This document shows positions 18,957 through 64,000 of a stretch of 64,000 bases of DNA, piece by piece (the stretch's first letter is position 1; each line of letters starts with the position of its first letter). The stretch comes from an uncultured Bacillota bacterium (GTDB lineage Bacteria > Bacillota_I > Bacilli_A > RF39 > UBA660): NCBI GenBank assembly GCA_946617625.1, contig CAMOKF010000001.1, forward strand, positions 22,064-86,063, in the 5' to 3' direction. A program made the translations under genes and the position numbers. The notes beneath the pieces were generated by a model. The model had not been told where the DNA came from and did no database searches. It saw only the letters and a program-made list of their open reading frames with translations.

Positions 18957-20117
18957 CTAAATAATTTTACTTAAACTATAAAATTTATCTTTACTATATT
19001 TAGCCAACTTTATATTATTTGGATTACATTGATTTATATAAATAATGTCATTATTATATAGTTGTTTACTACTAAATGCATTTTTTATTTGTTTTGATAT
19101 ATATCTTATAAAATTAACTGGAACACCTTGAGCAATACATTGAATAATTGGTGTTTTACATCTAGGTGTAAACTTAAAATCATTTGGATAACCCATCAAA
19201 GCAGCATACTCTCTTACGTAAAAATCTCTATTTTCTATTGGATGTATTATTTTAACGACAGACGCTAATGATGGAGCTCTATCATTTAATTTTGGTCTAT
19301 ATGGAGACTTGTCCCATATATTTTTATTATTATTAATCTTATCTTTAATTTTTATAATATCTTTTTTAACACTATCTGATAAATCTAAATCATCTAGATG
19401 TTCTACCTTAGATAATGCTACATATAAGCTCTCCTTTTCTTCTACCTTATCATAAAACTTAAACAACGATTCATCAGATTGTTCTGTAAAATTGCAATCA
19501 GTAGAAGAATAATCTATATTATTTAATACATTTTCTATATTGCAACGTTTACTATCTTGAACTATTTTAGGAATACCTGAAAAATTATCTCTGTTCCAAC
19601 CTATTATAAAAGTTCTACGTCTATGCATTGCAACATTATGATTACCGGCAATATCATTAATGATAGTAAATCTATAATTAGATAATAATTTTATCATATC
19701 TTTTAATATGGGCAAACCAGTAGTAGTCAATGTTGGAGCATTCTCTATTAAAAATGCTTTTGGATTAATTCTGTCTACCATTTTAAAAACATTATATAAA
19801 TATTTATTTACATCATTATCTACTTTAGCATTTCTATTTATAGAAGAAAGTCCTGAACAAGGTGGATTTGAAAATAGTAAATCGTAGTTTTCATCTTTTA
19901 ATTCATTTAAATAAGATTCATTATTTTCATATTCACTTGGAAGCTTTACTTCTATTTCTGGATAGTTTAACTTAAAATAGTGTGCATTTTGTTCTAACAT
20001 ATCATCGGTCATTTCAAGAATAGTATTTACATCCCATCCTTCTAGTAAATGACCTATAGTTTGACTTCCAGAAAATATATACATACCAATAGCTTTCATA
20101 ATTAGTCTCCTATGCAC
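18957..20117 (-). CDS. DNA (cytosine-5)-methyltransferase-like protein
   Basis: Motif I-like IFSGSQTIGH, motif IV FSNPPCSGLSSIN (Pro-Cys catalytic dipeptide), ENAP (motif VI ENV-like). Confidence 0.6.
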   Translation of the reverse strand: MHRRLIMKAIGMYIFSGSQTIGHLLEGWDVNTILEMTDDMLEQNAHYFKLNYPEIEVKLPSEYENNESYLNELKDENYDLLFSNPPCSGLSSINRNAKVDNDVNKYLYNVFKMVDRINPKAFLIENAPTLTTTGLPILKDMIKLLSNYRFTIINDIAGNHNVAMHRRRTFIIGWNRDNFSGIPKIVQDSKRCNIENVLNNIDYSSTDCNFTEQSDESLFKFYDKVEEKESLYVALSKVEHLDDLDLSDSVKKDIIKIKDKINNNKNIWDKSPYRPKLNDRAPSLASVVKIIHPIENRDFYVREYAALMGYPNDFKFTPRCKTPIIQCIAQGVPVNFIRYISKQIKNAFSSKQLYNNDIIYINQCNPNNIKLAKYSKDKFYSLSKII

Positions 20118-21370
20118 ATATTATATAGCTTTTTCATCATAATATCTCTATCAAAGACAGATTTATAATAATTATAAGCGTTATTTCTATACTCATCGTA
20201 TAAATCCATATTAGAATTAAGCTCATTCATAAGATTAAGTGTTTCTAAAGGATTATTTTCATCATACACAATTGTACCAATATCTTTTAGAGTATAATTA
20301 TCTAGTCTATCTCCACAGAAATTAGCACTATCATACAAATCTTTTCTAATAATTGGAATTGTACCACAAGCTACTATTTCTAATAAAGTTATTTCTAACT
20401 GTCCACCAAACTGTGGTCCAGTAAAAGTGAAAAACATACCAAATTTTGCTTTACTCAATCTCTCTAAAGCTTCTAATCTTACATATGGTCCATATATTTC
20501 CAAAGGATGATTACGATAATTTTCTATATTTTCTAAAACATCTTTTGGATTACCATTATCATTATAATTATTATCTTTTCTTAAGTCACCATATTTATTA
20601 GTTTTAGAATCATATTCCCATATAGCTTGCTTAGCATTTATAGAACGTTCAATTCCTTCAGCCACTGAAACATAATTATTATTCATAAGATATTCATAAT
20701 GAAATTCTCTAAAATACGTCCAACCCTTCCATAAAGCGGAACGTCCAATGAACCAACAAGTCTTATCTATCTTATCATTTGTCCAAAATCTATTTCTTAA
20801 ATCTTCGAAGTCTGTAGATATTAATTGTAACTGTTCTATTTTATAATTAGGTTTATCATTAATTAATGGTTTATTAATTAATGGCTTTACTTTTTTATTT
20901 ATAAACTTAGTACAAAAATCTGCTTGTTTATGATGAACAATAATTTTATCTAGAATACTAAAAAATCTCTTTATATAAGAACTATCTAAACAATAAAAAT
21001 TGCGATTAATGCTATGAATCTTATTATCTACTTGAAGATATACTAATTTTGTCCCATTATTATGCATATTTTCTAAAGTCAATAGAAAATTTTCAATAGT
21101 TTCTTCTGGATAATTTTTAGCTGGAACAGACATTATAATACATATATCTGGATTAAAACCAATTTTAGTATCTTCTAATAAACCTTCTTTAATAAAAGAA
21201 TGTTCCACAAAATCAGTTTCTTGCATATTTTTTCTACCCCAAGATTTGTCAGTTCCAGTAATAGTAATTACATTATTATTAATAGATTTTATATATTCTT
21301 CTAATTCAATAGTAATTCTAGTATTACCAGTACCTTCTGTACCTCTGGCTAATAGTAATAAAACGTTCAT
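20102..21370 (-). CDS. GT-B-fold glycosyltransferase (GT4-like)
   Basis: C-terminal FGMFFTFTGPQFGGQLEITLLEIVACGTIPII resembles the E-x7-E donor-binding motif region of GT4 enzymes. Confidence 0.5.
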   Translation of the reverse strand: MNVLLLLARGTEGTGNTRITIELEEYIKSINNNVITITGTDKSWGRKNMQETDFVEHSFIKEGLLEDTKIGFNPDICIIMSVPAKNYPEETIENFLLTLENMHNNGTKLVYLQVDNKIHSINRNFYCLDSSYIKRFFSILDKIIVHHKQADFCTKFINKKVKPLINKPLINDKPNYKIEQLQLISTDFEDLRNRFWTNDKIDKTCWFIGRSALWKGWTYFREFHYEYLMNNNYVSVAEGIERSINAKQAIWEYDSKTNKYGDLRKDNNYNDNGNPKDVLENIENYRNHPLEIYGPYVRLEALERLSKAKFGMFFTFTGPQFGGQLEITLLEIVACGTIPIIRKDLYDSANFCGDRLDNYTLKDIGTIVYDENNPLETLNLMNELNSNMDLYDEYRNNAYNYYKSVFDRDIMMKKLYNMCIGD

Positions 21371-21381
21371 AAATTAATTCC

Positions 21382-21612
21382 TTAGTCATTACTTTCTTTA
21401 AACTCTGGCATCTCTGTTCTAGGTCCAACATTAATGCTTATACTAAAATTGTTTACTCTGTAATTATTGCTACTTCCTTCTAGTGTTGATTGCATATTAA
21501 TATCAGTCTCAATTTCATCGTAATCTTCTAAATTTCTTAAGTTAGCATCCAATTCTTTTTTAAACTTTTTAATAATTACATCTTTATATCTCTTAATATC
21601 ATCTTTATTCAT
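21382..21612 (-). CDS. hypothetical protein
   Basis: ORF in minus-strand array. Confidence 0.4.
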   Translation of the reverse strand: MNKDDIKRYKDVIIKKFKKELDANLRNLEDYDEIETDINMQSTLEGSSNNYRVNNFSISINVGPRTEMPEFKESND

Positions 21613-21614
21613 CT

Positions 21615-22928
21615 TTAATTCTCCTTTATTATTTCTAATTCTATTAATTTATTTTTAAAATCTTTTTTAGATATAAATAAATCATCTACATAATTAACTA
21701 AAGCTGTTCTATATAAAAGTAATTTTTTAATGTTTAACACTTCATTACTTGATTCTAATGTACCATATGCAATATCTTTAAAAAATTGAATATCCTTATC
21801 ATATATATGTAGTGACATTGCATAATGATTATATGTTCCTACGTCTACATCTAACAATTCTGCTATATACTTTTGCAATGAAATGAAAAATCCTAAATCA
21901 TTAAGTACGCCATATCTCAAATCATTGCTACGCATAATTGTTGTACTATGTAATTTTTTATTTCTTATTTGATAGTTTAAACATATTGTACAAGGTTCAT
22001 CTTTAGTCTCTATTACTTTTTTATTAGGTATATTAATGTTTATAATAGCTCTTCTTGAATATGGGTCTTTTTTAAGCAATTCTACTATTTTTTCTATTTG
22101 ATTAAATCCATATTTTTGCTGTATTAAATACCCATAAGCCGAATTTGCAGTTAATCCATCATCTGAAACCTTTTCCCATAAACTAGCAAACTTACTAATA
22201 AATTTCAAATCATTTCTAGATGACCAATACCATAATAATTCTGCTGCTAAATATGTTAAATTAGTACCACCAGATTTCAAAGAAACATATTCATTATCTA
22301 AATCTGAAATAGAAAAACTATAATTACATAACTCTAAAGTGTGTCCTCTAGTATTTCTAGTTTCCATTGGATGTCCATTTTCTAAAACATCTCTGGCAAC
22401 TTGTCTATAAACAATGTTAGTAGTAGTTTTTCCATAATGACTATCTATCCAAGAATCTAACTTATCATAAGCATTATCTTCAGCTATATCGATAATATAA
22501 AAATTCTTATAATTATATTTATCTTTAAAATCCTTAGCTAATTTAGTAAAATGCTTATTTTGTGCTTCCATTATTGGAATAAAGCTATCTTCTCCACGTT
22601 CTTTGAGTCTTTTATTTATAATACTCATATCACTACTTATAAATACTATAAATAAATCATTATTATCTATAATTCTTTTGTTGATAGTTTCATATTCTTG
22701 AATACTTAACTTACAATCTCTATTATAAATAATTGGATATATCATTTCTCCAAAATGAAATCTTTCTAAAACTACATTATTTTGATAATCTAGTAAATTT
22801 ATATGATAGCCAAAATCATTTCTAGTTTTAGATGTAGAGTTAATTATAGACATATTATATTTAATTTTTAATTTATTCGATAATGTTGTTTTACCAGCTG
22901 CATCTAAACCTTCTAATATAATATTCAT
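21615..22928 (-). CDS. fusion: P-loop dNMP kinase domain + thymidylate-synthase/dNMP-hydroxymethylase-family domain
   Basis: N-term MNIILEGLDAAGKTTL (dNMP/thymidylate-kinase P-loop); C-term aligns with ThyA: ELLWYW, DPYSRRAIININ (RRIIVSAWN), DEPCTICLNYQI (catalytic PC), TIMRSNDLRYGVLNDLGF (QLYQRSCDVFLGLPFNI), SLHIY (THLY). Confidence 0.75.
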   Translation of the reverse strand: MNIILEGLDAAGKTTLSNKLKIKYNMSIINSTSKTRNDFGYHINLLDYQNNVVLERFHFGEMIYPIIYNRDCKLSIQEYETINKRIIDNNDLFIVFISSDMSIINKRLKERGEDSFIPIMEAQNKHFTKLAKDFKDKYNYKNFYIIDIAEDNAYDKLDSWIDSHYGKTTTNIVYRQVARDVLENGHPMETRNTRGHTLELCNYSFSISDLDNEYVSLKSGGTNLTYLAAELLWYWSSRNDLKFISKFASLWEKVSDDGLTANSAYGYLIQQKYGFNQIEKIVELLKKDPYSRRAIININIPNKKVIETKDEPCTICLNYQIRNKKLHSTTIMRSNDLRYGVLNDLGFFISLQKYIAELLDVDVGTYNHYAMSLHIYDKDIQFFKDIAYGTLESSNEVLNIKKLLLYRTALVNYVDDLFISKKDFKNKLIELEIIKEN

Positions 22929-27161: not shown

Positions 27162-27190
27162 ATTATAATATACTTTTTACATATTGTAAA
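27162..27190 (-). promoter_or_regulatory. sigma-A-type promoter with TTTACA-N3-TGTAAA palindrome
   Basis: Minus strand TTTACAATATGTAAAAAGTATATTATAAT; 17-nt spacer; about 370-nt leader before the SSB-like gene. Confidence 0.55.
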
Positions 27191-38055: not shown

Positions 38056-38147
38056 CTATTACCCATCTGTCTTTTGATTGAAATTGGGTCTTTAAGTTTT
38101 CTACCACATATTTTACATTTAACTATCTTATCTTTTTTATTCATCAT
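38010..38147 (-). CDS. hypothetical small zinc-finger protein (not in track)
   Basis: ATGATG start; MMNKKDKIVKCKICGRKLKD...NSCYKKH; stop overlaps internal ATG of helicase (ATGA). Confidence 0.3.
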   Translation of the reverse strand: MMNKKDKIVKCKICGRKLKDPISIKRQMGNSCYKKHLKEKRRRLI

Positions 38148-38385
38148 TATCTTCTAATACTGTTTTTATTAAATTTAGTTCATCCTTAGTAAATAATTCT
38201 TCTGCATTTTTTAATGCTATATCTAATAAAGTCTTTGCATCTTCTTTATATGTAGGACACAAATCACCTGATTTAGATAAATCTGCTTGTGTTATATAGA
38301 TATTTTTAGGTGCATTAGTGTGATGTCTAATGCACCTTTTATCTTTACAATTTTTATTTACACAAAATGTTATATCATAATTCAT
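38137..38385 (-). CDS. hypothetical Cys-rich protein
   Basis: First ORF after promoter 38403..38431; CVNKNCKDKRCIRHH. Confidence 0.45.
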   Translation of the reverse strand: MNYDITFCVNKNCKDKRCIRHHTNAPKNIYITQADLSKSGDLCPTYKEDAKTLLDIALKNAEELFTKDELNLIKTVLEDNDE

Positions 38386-38402: not shown

Positions 38403-38430
38403 ATAATTTACAATTTGTAAACCATATATT

Positions 38431-59495: not shown

Positions 59496-59524
59496 ATTAT
59501 AACATAAAGTTTACTTAAAGTAAA
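59496..59524 (-). promoter_or_regulatory. sigma-A-type promoter with palindrome variant GTTTAC-N5-GTAAAC
   Basis: Minus strand TTTACTTTAAGTAAACTTTATGTTATAAT; 17-nt spacer; TGn. Confidence 0.55.
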
Positions 59525-59532
59525 CACTTTTT

Positions 59533-59580
59533 TTGAAAAAAAATAAAAGTACTCATTATTTAAATGAATAACGAGTACTT
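59533..59580 (-). terminator. rho-independent terminator
   Basis: Minus strand AAGTACTCGTTATT-CATTTA-AATAATGAGTACTT (14-bp stem incl. one G-U) followed by TTATTTTTTTTC. Confidence 0.7.
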
Positions 59581-59645
59581 AAAATTAATCTATTTATTAT
59601 TTTGTATTATTTATTATACTTTTTAGAGTCACTACTATCTTCTGA

Positions 59646-60011
59646 TTATTCTTCAGAATCCACGGACTCTTCTTCATTCTCTCCCACATACTCATCGGTG
59701 TCATCTCCGGCATCTTCTTCAGTTGTTTCTGTATTAGATTCTTCATTTGAAGGTTGCTCTGATACTGAAGTATCTTCTTGAGCATCATCATCTGAACTTG
59801 TTGAGCTAACTTCTTCTGCATTTCCGGAGTCATTTGGTCTAACTCTGAATCCGTAAGATTGACTATATGGTAGTTCTCGTATTTTTGCTCTGATTCCATT
59901 TAAATACTCCTCATCTGTAAACTGTTCTTCTGTAAGTAAAATTATGGGCAAATTATTTTCTATAATTACTTCATATCCCAATTCTCTCAAAGCTTCCTCA
60001 AATGTTTTCAT
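59646..60011 (-). CDS. hypothetical protein with acidic Ser/Asp/Glu tail, paralogue of 55779..56012
   Basis: EEYLNGIR...SYGFR core; ORF 59597..59899 in track is the overlapping alternate frame. Confidence 0.5.
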   Translation of the reverse strand: MKTFEEALRELGYEVIIENNLPIILLTEEQFTDEEYLNGIRAKIRELPYSQSYGFRVRPNDSGNAEEVSSTSSDDDAQEDTSVSEQPSNEESNTETTEEDAGDDTDEYVGENEEESVDSEE

Positions 60012-60012
60012 A

Positions 60013-60312
60013 CTAATCCATCTCCTTTATATCTATTCCATATGATTCACATACTTGATGTTCAATCTTACATCCTCTAGCGTCTTGCCACCCTTTACAG
60101 AATATTGCTAAATCTGCTTGTGATAAAAATTGAATAGACATAGCTAAGAAAAATACAGGTTTTGCATTATGAGGTAAATCTTCAATAAAACTATCTATGA
60201 TTTCATATTCATCATAATGTTTATCTAGATATTTTTTAGCCTCTTCTCTTTCTGCCATTATTTCTTCATTTGTCTTATCCTTCATTGGTTGTGAAATAAA
60301 TACTTTAGTCAT
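60013..60312 (-). CDS. hypothetical protein
   Basis: ORF in minus-strand array. Confidence 0.45.
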   Translation of the reverse strand: MTKVFISQPMKDKTNEEIMAEREEAKKYLDKHYDEYEIIDSFIEDLPHNAKPVFFLAMSIQFLSQADLAIFCKGWQDARGCKIEHQVCESYGIDIKEMD

Positions 60313-60937
60313 TTTTTCCTCCTTTATTTAATTTATTATATTTTCTTAATTTTCTCTTGCTTACTTTAGAGATAAATTTAAGTCTATCTATTTCTGAACG
60401 TAACCAGTTTAAATTATCTCGTTGTTCTGAAATAATTCGTTCAAGCTTAATTATTTCTTGTTCTGTTTTATCTGTAGTAGAAACTAAACTACAATCTGCA
60501 GATTTAGATTTACTGCTATCTTTTGCAAGTTTTACTAGTTTAGATATTTTGCAACGTAATCCAGCAGATTTTTTACATAATTTATAAATTGTTCTATAAG
60601 TAATATTATCTGCTTTATTATTTTTTATTTTAGATAATATTGAAATATCTACATCTGCGCCTTTACATATTTGCGTATTAGAAATATCATATTTCTTATT
60701 AACCTCTTTAGCTCTTATAGCTATTGCATCAATGATTTCTTTTTTATGGTCAATTATATAAATGTAATTTTCTGCAACACTCTTAGGTATTAACCACGAT
60801 GTTTGATTTTCAATGTAAAATGCTCCATCAATAAAACCATCTTTTACTAACATTAATAAACTACTATAATTACCATTTCTAGTTTTCCTAATTACTTCAT
60901 TTGGTGTGTAATAGTATTTACCATTAACTTTTTCCAT
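60305..60937 (-). CDS. hypothetical DNA-binding-like protein, paralogue of 58513..59226
   Basis: Shared ICKGA/DNITYRTIYKLC/GLRCKIS block; SD GGAGGTTATTTAAT before ATG. Confidence 0.45.
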   Translation of the reverse strand: MEKVNGKYYYTPNEVIRKTRNGNYSSLLMLVKDGFIDGAFYIENQTSWLIPKSVAENYIYIIDHKKEIIDAIAIRAKEVNKKYDISNTQICKGADVDISILSKIKNNKADNITYRTIYKLCKKSAGLRCKISKLVKLAKDSSKSKSADCSLVSTTDKTEQEIIKLERIISEQRDNLNWLRSEIDRLKFISKVSKRKLRKYNKLNKGGKND

Positions 60938-60968
60938 ATTAAATAACCTCCGAACTTCATTTTAATTA

Positions 60969-60997
60969 AATATATCATATTATTTACAATATGTAAA
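60969..60997 (-). promoter_or_regulatory. sigma-A-type promoter with TTTACA-N3-TGTAAA palindrome
   Basis: Minus strand TTTACATATTGTAAATAATATGATATATT (-10 TATATT). Confidence 0.5.
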
Positions 60998-61013
60998 TAG
61001 TAATTTATGAATA

Positions 61014-61050
61014 ACTATAAAATAAAAAGGGATTCTCGTAAGAATCCCTT
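61014..61050 (-). terminator. rho-independent terminator
   Basis: Minus strand AAAGGGATTCT-TACG-AGAATCCCTTT (perfect 11-bp stem) followed by TTATTTTAT. Confidence 0.75.
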
Positions 61051-61255
61051 TAATCTTAAGGCTTCGCAAGTTTCTTAAGACAAATGGTCGACCCCTATAT
61101 AATTCGACCATATTCACATATTATTTACCAATATTAATTGCGAAAGGAGGTGAATAATATGTAGATTTAAAATTGTCCACTAAGGCAGGACCTCTCCATA
61201 CTATGAAAAAAATATATTTGTGTCAAAAGTATAAACACACAAACTTTTGACATTT
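61051..61255 (-). ncRNA. candidate small non-coding RNA (promoter-to-terminator unit without an SD-led ORF)
   Basis: Bounded by promoter 61258..61286 and terminator 61014..61050. Contains internal hairpins (TGTCAAAAGT/ACTTTTGACA, ATGGTCGA/TCGACCAT, TCTTAAG/CTTAAGA) and the anti-SD-like run UCACCUCCUUUC. Only tiny ORFs lacking an SD. Confidence 0.4.
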
Positions 61256-61257
61256 TG

Positions 61258-61286
61258 ATTATAATACAAAAGTTACTAAATGTAAA
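61258..61286 (-). promoter_or_regulatory. sigma-A-type promoter (partial palindrome)
   Basis: Minus strand TTTACATTTAGTAACTTTTGTATTATAAT; 17-nt spacer; begins 1 nt after the stop of 61290..63989. Confidence 0.55.
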
Positions 61287-61289
61287 CCT

Positions 61290-63989
61290 TTAATCTTCAT
61301 CTCGCATTATATGAATTATATCACCGCTGAAATCTCTGTATTTTCTGTCATCAGCATAATCACTATCAGGATGATTATCTGATTCATTTACGATTGTAAG
61401 ATTATCAGATTCATCTTCATTAATCATCGTATCATATAAATCTGAATTATGATTAATTATATAAGTATTATCTAATGATTGTGTTGATTGTATATGTAGC
61501 CCATATGCCATTTCAAAATTAAAGTATCTAATAAATTCATCAATATCTAATGTTTTTGTAAATTCCCAATTAGATAATGCAAAAATAAATTCTACATACT
61601 TAATCTGTGTCATATCGATATAACTGAAACTAAATTCGTGTGGTAGTACATCAGTTATTGATATTGTATTTAATTCTGTAAATATTAAATTACTCTTATC
61701 AGATGAATCATAGAAATTAACTGATATGTCTATACTAAGATTTAATGATTCAGTGTATGTGTTAGTATATGTGTAATCTGTTTTTGCTGTATGTACATAG
61801 TTACTCAAAAAGTTTAATTTTAATTTTAACATATCATCATAGTTATTAAACCCGCCAGTCTCAAACTCATAAGTATGAATAAGAACACTAGCACCTTCAC
61901 TATTTACATATTCAAGAAATTCCATAGTACTACCATACGGTATTAAAGTTGATGATATTATTTGTCTTTGATTTAATAATCTTTTTTGTGGAAATACATA
62001 TTCATCATCAGTATTATAAGTCATTAATTCTTGTTTTAACTTTGAAATTTGTAATGTTCTATTATTCCAATATGCATTAGAAACACTAAAGTCATAACCA
62101 GAAGTCTCTGTAAAATTATCTAATTCTACATACATAGCTTTTGCTTTTTGAATGCTATTAACTGCGTGAGTATTAGAATCTGTTAAATAGAATTTATATT
62201 TCAAAAAATAATTATTTGACGATGTATCGGAAGTTATCTTTTCCCAAATTCCAATACCACTATCATCAAATTCGATATTAGCATTTCCAACTTTAACTCT
62301 GGAAGTATCATTAATAGATGAAATATCATATCTATATACATTTGTAGGATTATTCAATAAAGAATTTTCTACTTCAGATGTAATATTAGCACTAGGAGTA
62401 CCATTTAATATACCGATATATTCTATACTTCTGTTCATTATTACCTTTACAAGTGTCTCTTTGTTCTTTAATTCAGTATCTATAATAAATGTTAATTGAT
62501 GTTTATCGTCTGATATTGTGCCAACACTAGAATTAGACAGTTCGATATTATCATCAAATCTTATTTTAAGAACATTTTCTAAATTTGAACCTACACTTTC
62601 TGTAACAGTAGATACATTTTCTAGTATAGAATTAGAAAAATGAACTTTATATAAGCCTTCCTTATAATAATTTCTAGTAGTAATTATATTATGTGTCTCA
62701 TTCCAGTTTATACTTGTATAATGACTAGGTTCTAAACCTTCTCCAAATCTATTATAAATAGCTATGTTATGGATTAAACCTGTATTATCCATAATTTTAA
62801 AATAATTAACCTGTTTTGAATTATCAGAAAGTTTAACTTTAATAACATTCTCTAATTCTCTTGCAGGAATAGATATATCAGAAAATACATTTGTATCTAT
62901 ATCTAAATAATAGAATCTACTATAATGAGTAAAGTTTTTAGTAACTTTATTTTTAAATATAATATAAAATTCCTTATCGAAATCTTCTCCATACTCTTCA
63001 TTAGAATCAACTGAAACTAATGAGAACTGGGTAGAACTATCATTAAAATCATAACCTTTTAAATTATTATTATTCTTATAAGTAATACTACTTTGATAAT
63101 CTAAATAATCAATGACTGGTAATATATTATACTTATTATCATTATTATGATAATTTGTAGAATTTAAATATAAATATCTCTTACTTATATTTATTATATT
63201 ATGTTCATAATCTACCCAACTAGCAAAACCATAAGGAATTGAAAAATAATTATACTTGATTAATTCACTTACATTATATACCTTTAAACTATATAGTAAT
63301 ATATTTTTAGTTACTCCACTTGAAGTTCTAGTTGATTGAGTTGTGATTATCTCTGTATTATCATCTAGTTTAAGTAATCTTGCAACATTTTGATTAAAGT
63401 TAATAATGAATGTGTCAGAAGAAGAATCATATTCAACTGAACTAACATAATCATTATTACTTACAGAAGTATACAACATATAAATTTTATTATCTCTAGT
63501 AAATGATAAATATTTTGAAGAGTCACTCCAAATTGTATTATCTTTAAAAGTAGTAGGATATAATCCAGGAACACATCCCCAATCTACATATGTATGATTA
63601 GATGAATCTATAAATGATAAATCATTATAAGAATCATCACTAAATCCTATAAAGTAATATTCATCTTCAGTTATATCAACATCTGTATCATACTTTTCTT
63701 CATAATTAAATGTTATTACAACTTGATTAGCTTTAATGTTTTTAAAGTTGAAAGTTTTAATGTTTAAACAATCTTTATTAAAATCACTAAATGTAATAAT
63801 ATTACCGTCAGAATCTGTTATATATTGATAATTAGACTGTTCACTACTTTTATATTGAACTTGAATAAAATAATTACTTCTTTTTCTCGTTTTAACCGTT
63901 AAAGTGTTAATTACCTTATCTTCATTATAAGTATATCTAATAGTATCTGAGATATTTGAGGGACTCCAAGAATCTGTATTATCTTCCAT
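61290..63989 (-). CDS. large Asn/Ser/Thr/Tyr-rich hypothetical protein (possibly structural/adhesin-like)
   Basis: 899-aa uninterrupted ORF; composition typical of fibre/receptor-binding proteins; no catalytic motif recognised. Confidence 0.5.
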   Translation of the reverse strand: MEDNTDSWSPSNISDTIRYTYNEDKVINTLTVKTRKRSNYFIQVQYKSSEQSNYQYITDSDGNIITFSDFNKDCLNIKTFNFKNIKANQVVITFNYEEKYDTDVDITEDEYYFIGFSDDSYNDLSFIDSSNHTYVDWGCVPGLYPTTFKDNTIWSDSSKYLSFTRDNKIYMLYTSVSNNDYVSSVEYDSSSDTFIINFNQNVARLLKLDDNTEIITTQSTRTSSGVTKNILLYSLKVYNVSELIKYNYFSIPYGFASWVDYEHNIINISKRYLYLNSTNYHNNDNKYNILPVIDYLDYQSSITYKNNNNLKGYDFNDSSTQFSLVSVDSNEEYGEDFDKEFYIIFKNKVTKNFTHYSRFYYLDIDTNVFSDISIPARELENVIKVKLSDNSKQVNYFKIMDNTGLIHNIAIYNRFGEGLEPSHYTSINWNETHNIITTRNYYKEGLYKVHFSNSILENVSTVTESVGSNLENVLKIRFDDNIELSNSSVGTISDDKHQLTFIIDTELKNKETLVKVIMNRSIEYIGILNGTPSANITSEVENSLLNNPTNVYRYDISSINDTSRVKVGNANIEFDDSGIGIWEKITSDTSSNNYFLKYKFYLTDSNTHAVNSIQKAKAMYVELDNFTETSGYDFSVSNAYWNNRTLQISKLKQELMTYNTDDEYVFPQKRLLNQRQIISSTLIPYGSTMEFLEYVNSEGASVLIHTYEFETGGFNNYDDMLKLKLNFLSNYVHTAKTDYTYTNTYTESLNLSIDISVNFYDSSDKSNLIFTELNTISITDVLPHEFSFSYIDMTQIKYVEFIFALSNWEFTKTLDIDEFIRYFNFEMAYGLHIQSTQSLDNTYIINHNSDLYDTMINEDESDNLTIVNESDNHPDSDYADDRKYRDFSGDIIHIMRDED

Positions 63990-64000
63990 TGTAGGAATAA

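Follow-up and report, generated by a model that had tools for sequence, protein, structure and literature searches.

A large, strongly AT-rich phage that has not been cultivated carries, in the space between two of its genes, a minus-strand unit that is most likely a standalone gene for a non-coding RNA, and we describe it here as a putative one. The explanation we favour is that this gene would specify a structured RNA of ~235 nt (~175 nt if transcription began at a second candidate promoter, P2) that would block the Shine-Dalgarno (SD) sequences of target mRNAs. Taken whole, as a standalone gene together with this mechanism, the explanation seems to us evenly poised between right and wrong. 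Its parts can be graded separately: that a real structured non-coding RNA gene is present is highly probable, and the specific SD-blocking mechanism has nearly an even chance of holding. The initial annotation had already proposed a discrete minus-strand, non-coding phage sRNA gene, and this prediction is well supported by a promoter belonging to a family, a strong terminator, the lack of a conserved ORF and compensatory base changes. The analysis concerns a 64-kb stretch of DNA, hereafter the window, and two diverged relatives from other metagenomes, L002 (an ENA contig) and L003 (a Logan contig).

Genomic context of the unit

The window is phage-like, has a GC content of 26.8% and carries every ORF of at least 130 aa on its minus strand. 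It codes for GroEL, an SNF2 helicase, a family A DNA polymerase, DnaB and an SbcC-like protein, and also for a thymidylate-synthase-like protein, an alpha-glucosyltransferase and a C5 methylase. The nearest relatives of the DNA polymerase (~43% identity) belong to phages of Clostridium, Bacillus and Streptococcus; a Firmicutes host using the UCACCUCCUUUCU tail is therefore plausible, and the host of the phage is probably a member of the Firmicutes. Among GenBank phages, neither megablast nor blastn returned a DNA match for the region, and tblastn returned none for the protein encoded upstream of the unit.

The unit lies directly behind the stop codon of a giant gene (TAA, 61292..61290, minus strand) and ~80 nt ahead of an SD-led gene of 210 aa (60937..60305, minus strand) whose product shows a weak match to Cro/C1-type helix-turn-helix proteins. 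What had been described as an 899-aa gene upstream is really the C-terminal part of a longer one: the gene runs past the edge of the window, and in an identical 136-kb scaffold it encodes at least 3215 aa. The unit had also been called unusually GC-rich; its GC content is indeed raised, but the wording was too strong, since the enrichment is modest (30.8% against a window mean of 26.8%, 86th percentile).

Promoters and terminator

The putative promoter of the unit, P1 (61286..61258, minus strand), combines TTTACA (61286-61281), a 17-nt spacer and TATAAT (61263-61258), with 11 of 12 consensus matches. It is the top promoter-like site within 58-64 kb, its sequence is identical in L002, and it predicts a transcription start near 61252-61251. 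A consensus promoter just past the upstream stop codon had been noted before; the promoter stands, although its -35 hexamer begins 3 nt past the TAA rather than 1 nt. A generic consensus promoter scan of the window returned 57 sites against 54.6 expected in shuffled sequence, which is the chance level for AT-rich DNA, so that the support for P1 comes from its membership in a promoter family and not from the scan. This family, TTTACA-N3-(T/A)GTAA(A/C)-N8-TATAAT, has seven sites in the window, all of them intergenic and on the gene-sense (minus) strand. Five copies contain the perfect palindrome TTTACA-N3-TGTAAA with TATAAT 8 nt later (TATATT at 60983), and P1 is one of the two degenerate copies. 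That P1 belongs to the phage's own promoter class is the main argument for a transcript starting near 61251. The second candidate, P2 (TTGACA-17-TAGTAT, 61226..61198, minus strand, 10 of 12 matches), overlaps the 3' arm of the first hairpin, H0, and would give a start near 61191; its status is uncertain and it may be a chance match. Two other long promoter-to-gene gaps in the window, located at ~27 kb and ~38 kb, turned out to contain small ORFs; neither is a sister RNA unit.

At the other end, ~235 nt from P1, lies an intrinsic terminator (61051..61016, minus strand) whose 11-bp stem is capped by a UACG loop and followed by a U-rich tail, and which does not vary among the three sequences; positions 61051..61026 read AAAGGGATTCT-TACG-AGAATCCCTTT and are followed by TTATTTTATA. 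A scan of the whole window for terminator-like hairpins placed it second on the minus strand and third overall, in agreement with the earlier description of an 11-bp stem with a U-tract among the strongest terminators of the window. The next promoter had been placed close behind it, and one does begin ~29 nt past the terminator: a separate family promoter (TTTACATATTGTAAA...TATATT, 60997..60969, minus strand), outside the RNA, which serves the 210-aa helix-turn-helix gene and has a promoter-like counterpart at the same position in both L002 and L003. As the downstream gene has a promoter of its own, the RNA unit stands alone.

The location of the unit, directly behind the stop codon of one gene and ~80 nt before the next, would also suit a cis-acting RNA, either a structured 3' UTR or terminator of the giant gene or a leader or attenuator of the helix-turn-helix operon, with a loop that pairs with an SD in cis. 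The block of high identity between the window and L002 takes in the last 135 nt of the giant gene, the icaR 3' UTR provides a precedent, and UCCUUU is able to pair with AAAGGG in the 5' arm of the terminator, as read from the sequence. Against this reading, the unit has P1 as a family-type promoter of its own, and past the terminator a separate promoter serves the downstream gene. No credible antiterminator was found, the best alternative pairings being of 5-6 bp against the 11 bp of the terminator; pairing with the SD of the downstream gene, likewise read from the sequence, is limited to 6 bp; and the SD of the giant gene is more than 9.6 kb away, outside the window. A cis-acting function thus appears rather improbable to us. 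The more particular case of a riboswitch or attenuator leader was rejected on the 5-6 bp of the best alternative pairings and on the promoter of the downstream gene, which lies past the terminator.

Homologues and family searches

The RNA unit is carried at the matching position by L002 and L003; two further contigs, L004 and L005, are identical to the window, and the family thus comprises three distinct sequences only. Their value for comparison is uneven. The window and L002 form a mosaic: across 61425..61030 their identity is 92-100%, probably as a result of recent exchange, with the consequence that much of the conservation is not independent. The window and L003 share 78% identity within the unit, and the flanking gene and spacer are conserved at least as well. 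An argument from conservation above the flanks was dropped on these grounds: raw conservation proves little here, and the evidence lies in the pattern of substitutions.

Further relatives were sought by several routes. Among 5.8 billion sequences, relatives of the downstream protein numbered only two, with identities of 68% and 61%, and their contigs are L003 and L002. Searches through the giant, helix-turn-helix and 156-aa proteins led only to L002, L003 and identical copies. The 99-aa protein gave no new homologue: it led to a close relative, L055, whose contig ends inside the helix-turn-helix gene, and to L056 and L057, whose contexts are unrelated. At the DNA level, the patterns ATTATTCACCTCCTTTCGC and ATGGTCGA..TAGGGGTCG matched only GC-rich coding sequences or reverse-complemented ribosome-binding sites (RBSs) in viral contigs, and TTCACCTCCTTTCGC..ATGGTCG matched only GC-rich coding sequences in JGI metagenomes. 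The terminator core had no match in viral contigs and was found only in Limnoglobus MAGs among GTDB genomes.

An Rfam search, which the initial annotation had suggested, was run on the unit with Rfam 15 (4227 models, among them RsaE, c4, phi29 pRNA, 6S, riboswitches and tmRNA) using permissive filters and E values up to 10, and nothing overlapped 61014..61286; a scan of the whole window at gathering thresholds returned a single tRNA and nothing else. A covariance model of the unit, R1, finds a single copy in the window and hence no paralogue. We regard the unit as a new RNA family of a known kind, comprising the three sequences only.

A probable structured RNA with compensatory changes

Fold prediction, another analysis suggested at the outset, gave -62.2 kcal/mol for the unit (z = -4.4 against shuffles), and the unit is thus more stable than shuffled sequence; its two strands fold equally well in the window. 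A consensus structure was obtained with RNAalifold from the window, L002 and L003, the last of which starts at H1 and lacks the 5' third. Where three internal hairpins had been counted earlier, five precede the terminator, all on the minus strand. The 5'-end hairpin H0 (61252..61221) has 10-bp arms, UGUCAAAAGU and ACUUUUGACA, and a 12-nt loop; it is predicted only, since the window and L002 do not differ over this stretch and the L003 contig does not reach it, which leaves no covariation to examine. H1 (61191..61175) is a small hairpin, GUCC(U)GC...GU GGAC, in which two one-sided changes, U-A to U·G and G·U to A-U, retain pairing. H2 (61163..61115) has a 14-bp stem and a 19-nt apical loop (61148-61130); all its pairs are retained and two single changes are wobble-compatible. 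The 8-bp stem of H3 (61111..61084; AUGGUCGA and UCGACCAU) includes a pair that changes from U-A to U·G in both L002 and L003, and its loop is 12-19 nt long, depending on the homologue, yet in every case closes with an invariant UAGGGG (61097-61092). H4 (61081..61053) is a two-part helix of 8 bp and 3 bp.

The substitutions follow this structure closely. All 50 predicted pairs are standard in all three sequences. Four double-sided changes preserve pairing (A-U/G-C, U-A/C-G, U-A/A-U and G-C/A-U), three of them in H4 proper and one in its inner extension, and six further pairs changed on one side only, in a wobble-compatible way through G·U. Variable positions make up 14 of the 99 paired columns and none breaks a pair, while indels between homologues are confined to loops and linkers. 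When the pairing partners were slid by 1-3 columns as a control, no double-sided change was left and pairing fell to 33-46%; in a column-shuffle control the observed value was reached in 8 of 500 shuffles, which makes it moderately extreme only. The variable pairs include 10 G·U cells and no A·C cell, which argues for a constraint on the minus-strand RNA rather than on the plus strand or on duplex DNA. We read this pattern as the mark of selection on an RNA structure of the minus strand, in which H4 is supported by compensatory changes, H1-H3 by wobble-compatible changes only and H0 by prediction only.

The same pattern bears on the suggestion that the selected element is DNA, such as a set of operator palindromes, a replication or packaging site or a mosaic recombination boundary, with the RNA fold incidental. 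Hairpins are palindromes and can fold on both strands, the unit lies at the mosaic boundary between the window and L002, and the promoter family has a palindromic, operator-like -35 region. The G·U-compatible changes are strand-specific, however, and would be meaningless for duplex DNA; the compensatory changes keep pairing and not sequence, unlike those expected of protein-binding sites; and the half-sites do not recur elsewhere, a search for repeats of the H0 half-sites having found none. We regard a DNA-level element as very improbable.

Coding potential

The ORFs of the unit are limited to three small frames: a 28-aa ATG frame (MSKVCVFILLTQIYFFHSMERSCLSGQF, 61253..61167) and a 45-aa GTG frame (61117..60980) on the minus strand, and a 25-aa TTG frame within the unit on the plus strand. 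The earlier observation that its ATG-started ORFs lack an SD holds, none of the three listed frames having one. Comparison of the homologues disrupts each minus-strand candidate in a different way. Loop insertions, of 2 nt in L002 and 7 nt in L003, disrupt the 45-aa frame; a 19-codon GUG frame behind a GGAGAGG run meets a stop after 3 codons in L003; and the 28-aa frame, comparable only in part, ends 15 codons later in L003. No ORF appears to be conserved between the homologues, all small frames being broken or altered in L002 or L003.

The 28-aa frame could still be translated if the transcript were a leaderless mRNA for a hydrophobic peptide, with the downstream structure serving as a stabilising 3' UTR. 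Its ATG lies 5 nt past the -10 hexamer, so that the transcript could start at the AUG; the N-terminal half of MSKVCVFILLTQIYFFHSMERSCLSGQF is hydrophobic; and the window and L002 share 99% identity over the 5' third of the unit. A start at the optimal position, 61251-61252, would nevertheless drop the AUG, which in addition lies inside the H0 stem, and the frame runs 15 codons further in L003. This reading would moreover leave the covarying helices H2-H4 and the invariant loop motifs unexplained, and we give it very little credence.

A sequence identical to the 16S rRNA tail

The unit contains AUUCACCUCCUUUCGC, and within it the initial annotation had pointed to an identity of 11-12 nt with the anti-SD tail of 16S rRNA. 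The match is 12 nt long: UCACCUCCUUUC (61153..61142, minus strand) is identical to the Firmicutes 16S rRNA 3' tail, which in B. subtilis and C. acetobutylicum reads GAUCACCUCCUUUCU (PMC5427494, PMC1904277). Neither strand of the 64-kb window contains a longer stretch matching the 16S tail or its complement; the real RBSs (~100) reach at most 10 nt, and the complement of the 12-mer, GAAAGGAGGTGA, is the longest ideal-SD match in the window.

This complement lends itself to a plus-strand interpretation, in which GAAAGGAGGTGA, followed after 7 nt by ATG, would be an RBS for a tiny ORF, a start-stop element or one half of a type I toxin-antitoxin-like pair; the minus-strand RNA would then be a cis-antisense partner or a by-product. 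The SD is the strongest in the window and ideally spaced from its ATG, there is a promoter-like site at 61075..61103 on the plus strand, H0 followed by a U-rich run could terminate plus-strand transcription, and in L003 the ATG opens a frame that reaches the end of the contig. In the window and in L002, however, a TAG stands directly behind the ATG although all else is conserved, and a 2-nt indel in L003 (ATG TAT...) means that no frame is shared. In L003 the plus-strand site no longer has its -35/-10 spacing, the 10 G·U pairs of the minus strand would turn into A·C mismatches in a plus-strand RNA, and all ORFs of at least 130 aa in the window are on the minus strand. The candidate peptides are basic and not hydrophobic as toxins are. 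Both forms of the plus-strand interpretation, with the minus-strand RNA as partner or as by-product, therefore seem quite unlikely. The initial annotation had offered a relic of a plus-strand RBS with ATG-TAG as its alternative; this does not agree with the absence of ATG-TAG in L003, the loss of promoter spacing and the fact that every wobble pair favours the minus strand. A type I toxin-antitoxin locus was also rejected, given the plus-strand ATG-TAG in the window and L002, the unconserved frames and the basic read-through peptides.

On the minus strand, UCACCUCCUUUC is divided between the stem and the loop of H2: its UCACC forms the upper end of the stem, apart from C61151, which bulges out as a single unpaired nucleotide, and its UCCUUUC belongs to the loop. 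The first nine bases of the H2 loop, UCCUUUCGC (61148..61140, minus strand), are invariant in all three sequences and have an unpaired probability of at least 0.82 in each homologue, while among the other 10 loop bases five differ in L003 (50% diverged). Invariance of UCCUUUCGC within a diverged loop would be the behaviour of a base-pairing seed, and we regard this segment as a candidate seed. With this CU-rich segment and the G-rich UAGGGG of H3, the unit has two distinct loop motifs that do not vary.

It had been proposed that a mimic of the 16S tail could titrate or occlude SD sequences. The invariant UCCUUUCGC, predicted to be unpaired, lends only indirect support to a functional role of the tail-like sequence, and no target was found in the window. 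Only 7 of the 12 tail-identical bases are exposed, and they lie within an internal loop and not at a free 3' end. Such an internal, partly exposed site fits an SD-targeting seed better than a 16S-tail mimic or a global SD titrator. That the RNA is a true anti-SD mimic or decoy is, in our judgement, improbable. One specific version would have a functional anti-SD-tail mimic made early, which would compete with the 30S subunit for leaders with a strong SD, and thereby change the set of translated mRNAs, or act as a decoy for a host factor or toxin, and this we hold to be quite doubtful. The same low grade goes to its corollary, in which the factor or toxin recognises or cuts the 16S 3' tail and the UAGGGG loop would be a built-in SD-like gate.

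A broader class of decoy or sponge functions would have the tail-like segment titrate SDs globally or capture a factor or nuclease directed at the 16S tail, or have the invariant purine motifs UAGGGG and AAAGGG soak up a C-rich host sRNA of the RsaE/RoxS type. The 12-nt identity exceeds what any RBS complement in the window needs, and the CU-rich and G-rich loops are both invariant. Precedents exist as well: AAGGGG-type motifs are known targets of RsaE, and the prophage sRNA SprY titrates RNAIII. The tail-like sequence is nevertheless internal and partly paired, with its UCACC in the upper H2 stem, whereas the 16S tail is a free 3' end; its flanks are unlike 16S helix 45; and global SD titration would also hit the SD-led genes of the phage itself. 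We consider a decoy or sponge unlikely.

Proposed mechanism and targets

In the SD-blocking explanation that we prefer, a host-type RNA polymerase would start at P1 and stop at the strong intrinsic terminator, activities that we infer from the sequence features of both elements. The RNA would fold into the 5' hairpin H0, helices H1-H4 and the terminator hairpin, and the 19-nt loop of H2 would display UCCUUUCGC, presumably the first contact with the purine-rich SD region (GAAAGGA...) of one or more target mRNAs. Pairing may then extend into the H2 stem (UUCACC) to give 12-15 bp. The resulting duplex would block binding of the 30S subunit and might also create a substrate for RNase III, the mode of action of C-rich-loop sRNAs from staphylococci and Bacillus and of the P1/P7 c4 RNA. 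The UAGGGG of H3 might provide another point of contact or else act as the partner of the CU-rich loop.

Duplex scans against all translation-initiation regions of the window gave no more than generic SD complementarity, and blastn-short with the whole RNA together with a search for GCGAAAGGAGG gave nothing beyond chance in the window. As no extended target occurs there, the targets would have to be host mRNAs or to lie in the unseen half of the phage genome, and they are probably host mRNAs or phage mRNAs from outside the window. Nearly every RBS would be open to pairing with a seed of the GGAGG type, and specificity is thus left without an explanation.

Comparison with known systems

The closest functional parallels are RNAs that occlude SD sequences. 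RsaE/RoxS RNAs bind SDs through single-stranded, anti-SD-like C-rich motifs, prevent the formation of initiation complexes and create RNase III sites (PMC6158497). Like them, and like the hairpins of S. aureus RNAIII, the unit is a candidate standalone sRNA running from promoter to terminator, with a conserved, pyrimidine-rich and predicted single-stranded motif complementary to the SD, from which a block of the 30S subunit, with or without RNase III cleavage, would be expected. It differs in having no sequence or structure match to the Rfam models, in being phage-encoded, ~2x longer and composed of five helices, and in its motif, which is CCUCCUUUC, identical to the 16S tail and single, instead of a duplicated CCCC/UCCC.

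Among phage RNAs, the loop sequences of the c4 RNA of phages P1 and P7 bind around the ant RBS and cover it (PMC12197685). The unit resembles c4 as a small structured RNA encoded by a phage, with a loop that may likewise pair around an RBS and block translation, and adjoining a regulatory gene of the helix-turn-helix type; unlike c4, it has no Rfam c4 match, belongs to a different host clade and phage type, has no complementary target downstream in its operon and is not antisense to an annotated gene. P22 sar and lambda OOP are further phage riboregulators.

In the icaR 3' UTR of S. aureus, a UCCCCUG motif pairs with the icaR SD, UAGGGGG (PMC3868564). The unit likewise places a pyrimidine-rich anti-SD motif a few hundred nucleotides past a stop codon, in a structured region ahead of a terminator, and it conserves UAGGGG in H3, similar to the icaR SD. 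The icaR 3' UTR contrasts with the unit, which has its own promoter and whose internal CUCCU:AGGGG pairing is of 5 bp only. As for the 16S rRNA 3' tail of B. subtilis and C. acetobutylicum, the likeness is the 12-nt identity; unlike the tail, the copy in the unit is internal, has 5 of its 12 bases in the stem region, differs in its flanks from helix 45 and has no Rfam SSU match. On these comparisons the unit appears to resemble SD-occluding riboregulators and to be a member of no described RNA family.

The unit remains a good candidate rather than a discovery, with three sequences and no target found in the window. It is nonetheless readily testable, having defined ends, a structure backed by compensatory changes, a short invariant loop that can be mutated and no known family. 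To our knowledge, the sRNAs of virulent phages infecting Gram-positive bacteria are almost uncharted. A review of phage sRNAs covers mainly prophage and enterobacterial examples (PMC12197685). If SD blocking proved true, the RNA would offer a large Firmicutes phage an RNA route to translational take-over or to the switching of gene classes, in parallel to the effect of T4 RegB. This phage T4 nuclease cuts GGAG in SD sequences.

Promoters with a palindromic -35 region

The window contains a family of phage promoters in which the -35 region, TTTACA-N3-TGTAAA, forms a perfect palindrome followed 8 nt downstream by TATAAT. Perfect sites are found on the minus strand at 2737-2751, 4962-4976, 27176-27190, 38407-38421 and 60983-60997, the last with TATATT in place of TATAAT, and degenerate sites on the same strand at 59510-59524 and 61272-61286. 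Every site is intergenic and lies on the gene-sense (minus) strand, and the five perfect 12-base palindromes far exceed chance expectation. A phage regulator, perhaps the 210-aa helix-turn-helix protein, may also use the palindrome as its operator.

The 3' arm of H2, the 14-bp hairpin stem of the candidate non-coding RNA, reads GUAAAUAAUAUG (61126-61137), and an exact second copy occupies the spacer of the promoter downstream of the RNA unit (60976-60987). Both copies carry an identical A-to-G change (..AAUGUG / ..UAUGUG) in L003, a Logan contig from a diverged relative. The repeat may have arisen by chance in AT-rich DNA, or it may be a sign that H2 originated from a duplicated promoter.

A second terminator-then-promoter junction consists of a 14-bp hairpin with a T-run (59547-59580) and a promoter, TTTACT-17-TATAAT (59496-59524). 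Just upstream on the minus strand, GC content rises to as much as 41% in the interval 59600-59950, the peak for the 58-64 kb region; here, 100-aa and 121-aa ORFs overlap in different frames. Of all hairpins in the window that carry a T-rich tail, the most stable is located elsewhere, at 38308-38337 (AGGTGCATTAG...CTAATGCACCT, -16.2 kcal/mol). Its orientation is that of a terminator for the plus strand, which carries no genes, and it falls within an 82-aa minus-strand ORF (38385..38137) between the GroEL and SNF2 genes.

Mosaic relationship with a diverged phage

Comparison of window positions 60000-62174 with positions 1-2200 of L002, an ENA contig from another diverged relative, revealed strong mosaicism: stretches with 92-100% nucleotide identity (61425-61030 and 60416-60160) are interspersed with others at 30-70%, a pattern that suggests frequent recombination. 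Mosaic boundaries fall at or close to the terminator of the RNA unit.

Upstream of this unit, the last 45 codons of the giant gene are far better kept in L002 than the rest of the C-terminal part compared. The initial annotation listed this gene as 899 aa, a size that must be revised: the minus-strand ORF (61290-64000) is open at the window edge, and its product reaches at least 3215 aa in an identical 136-kb ENA scaffold (L004, 1-5648). The protein had no match in Pfam or PHROG and no relative among GenBank phages.

Putative DNA modification genes and a tRNA

A cluster at 18957-22928 encodes a 437-aa protein fusing a thymidylate-synthase-like to a thymidylate-kinase-like domain, a 422-aa T4-type alpha-glucosyltransferase and a 386-aa C5 cytosine methylase, which suggests that the phage DNA is hypermodified. 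The sole Rfam match in the window at the family gathering score is a single minus-strand tRNA-Gln gene (anticodon UUG) at 1093-1163.
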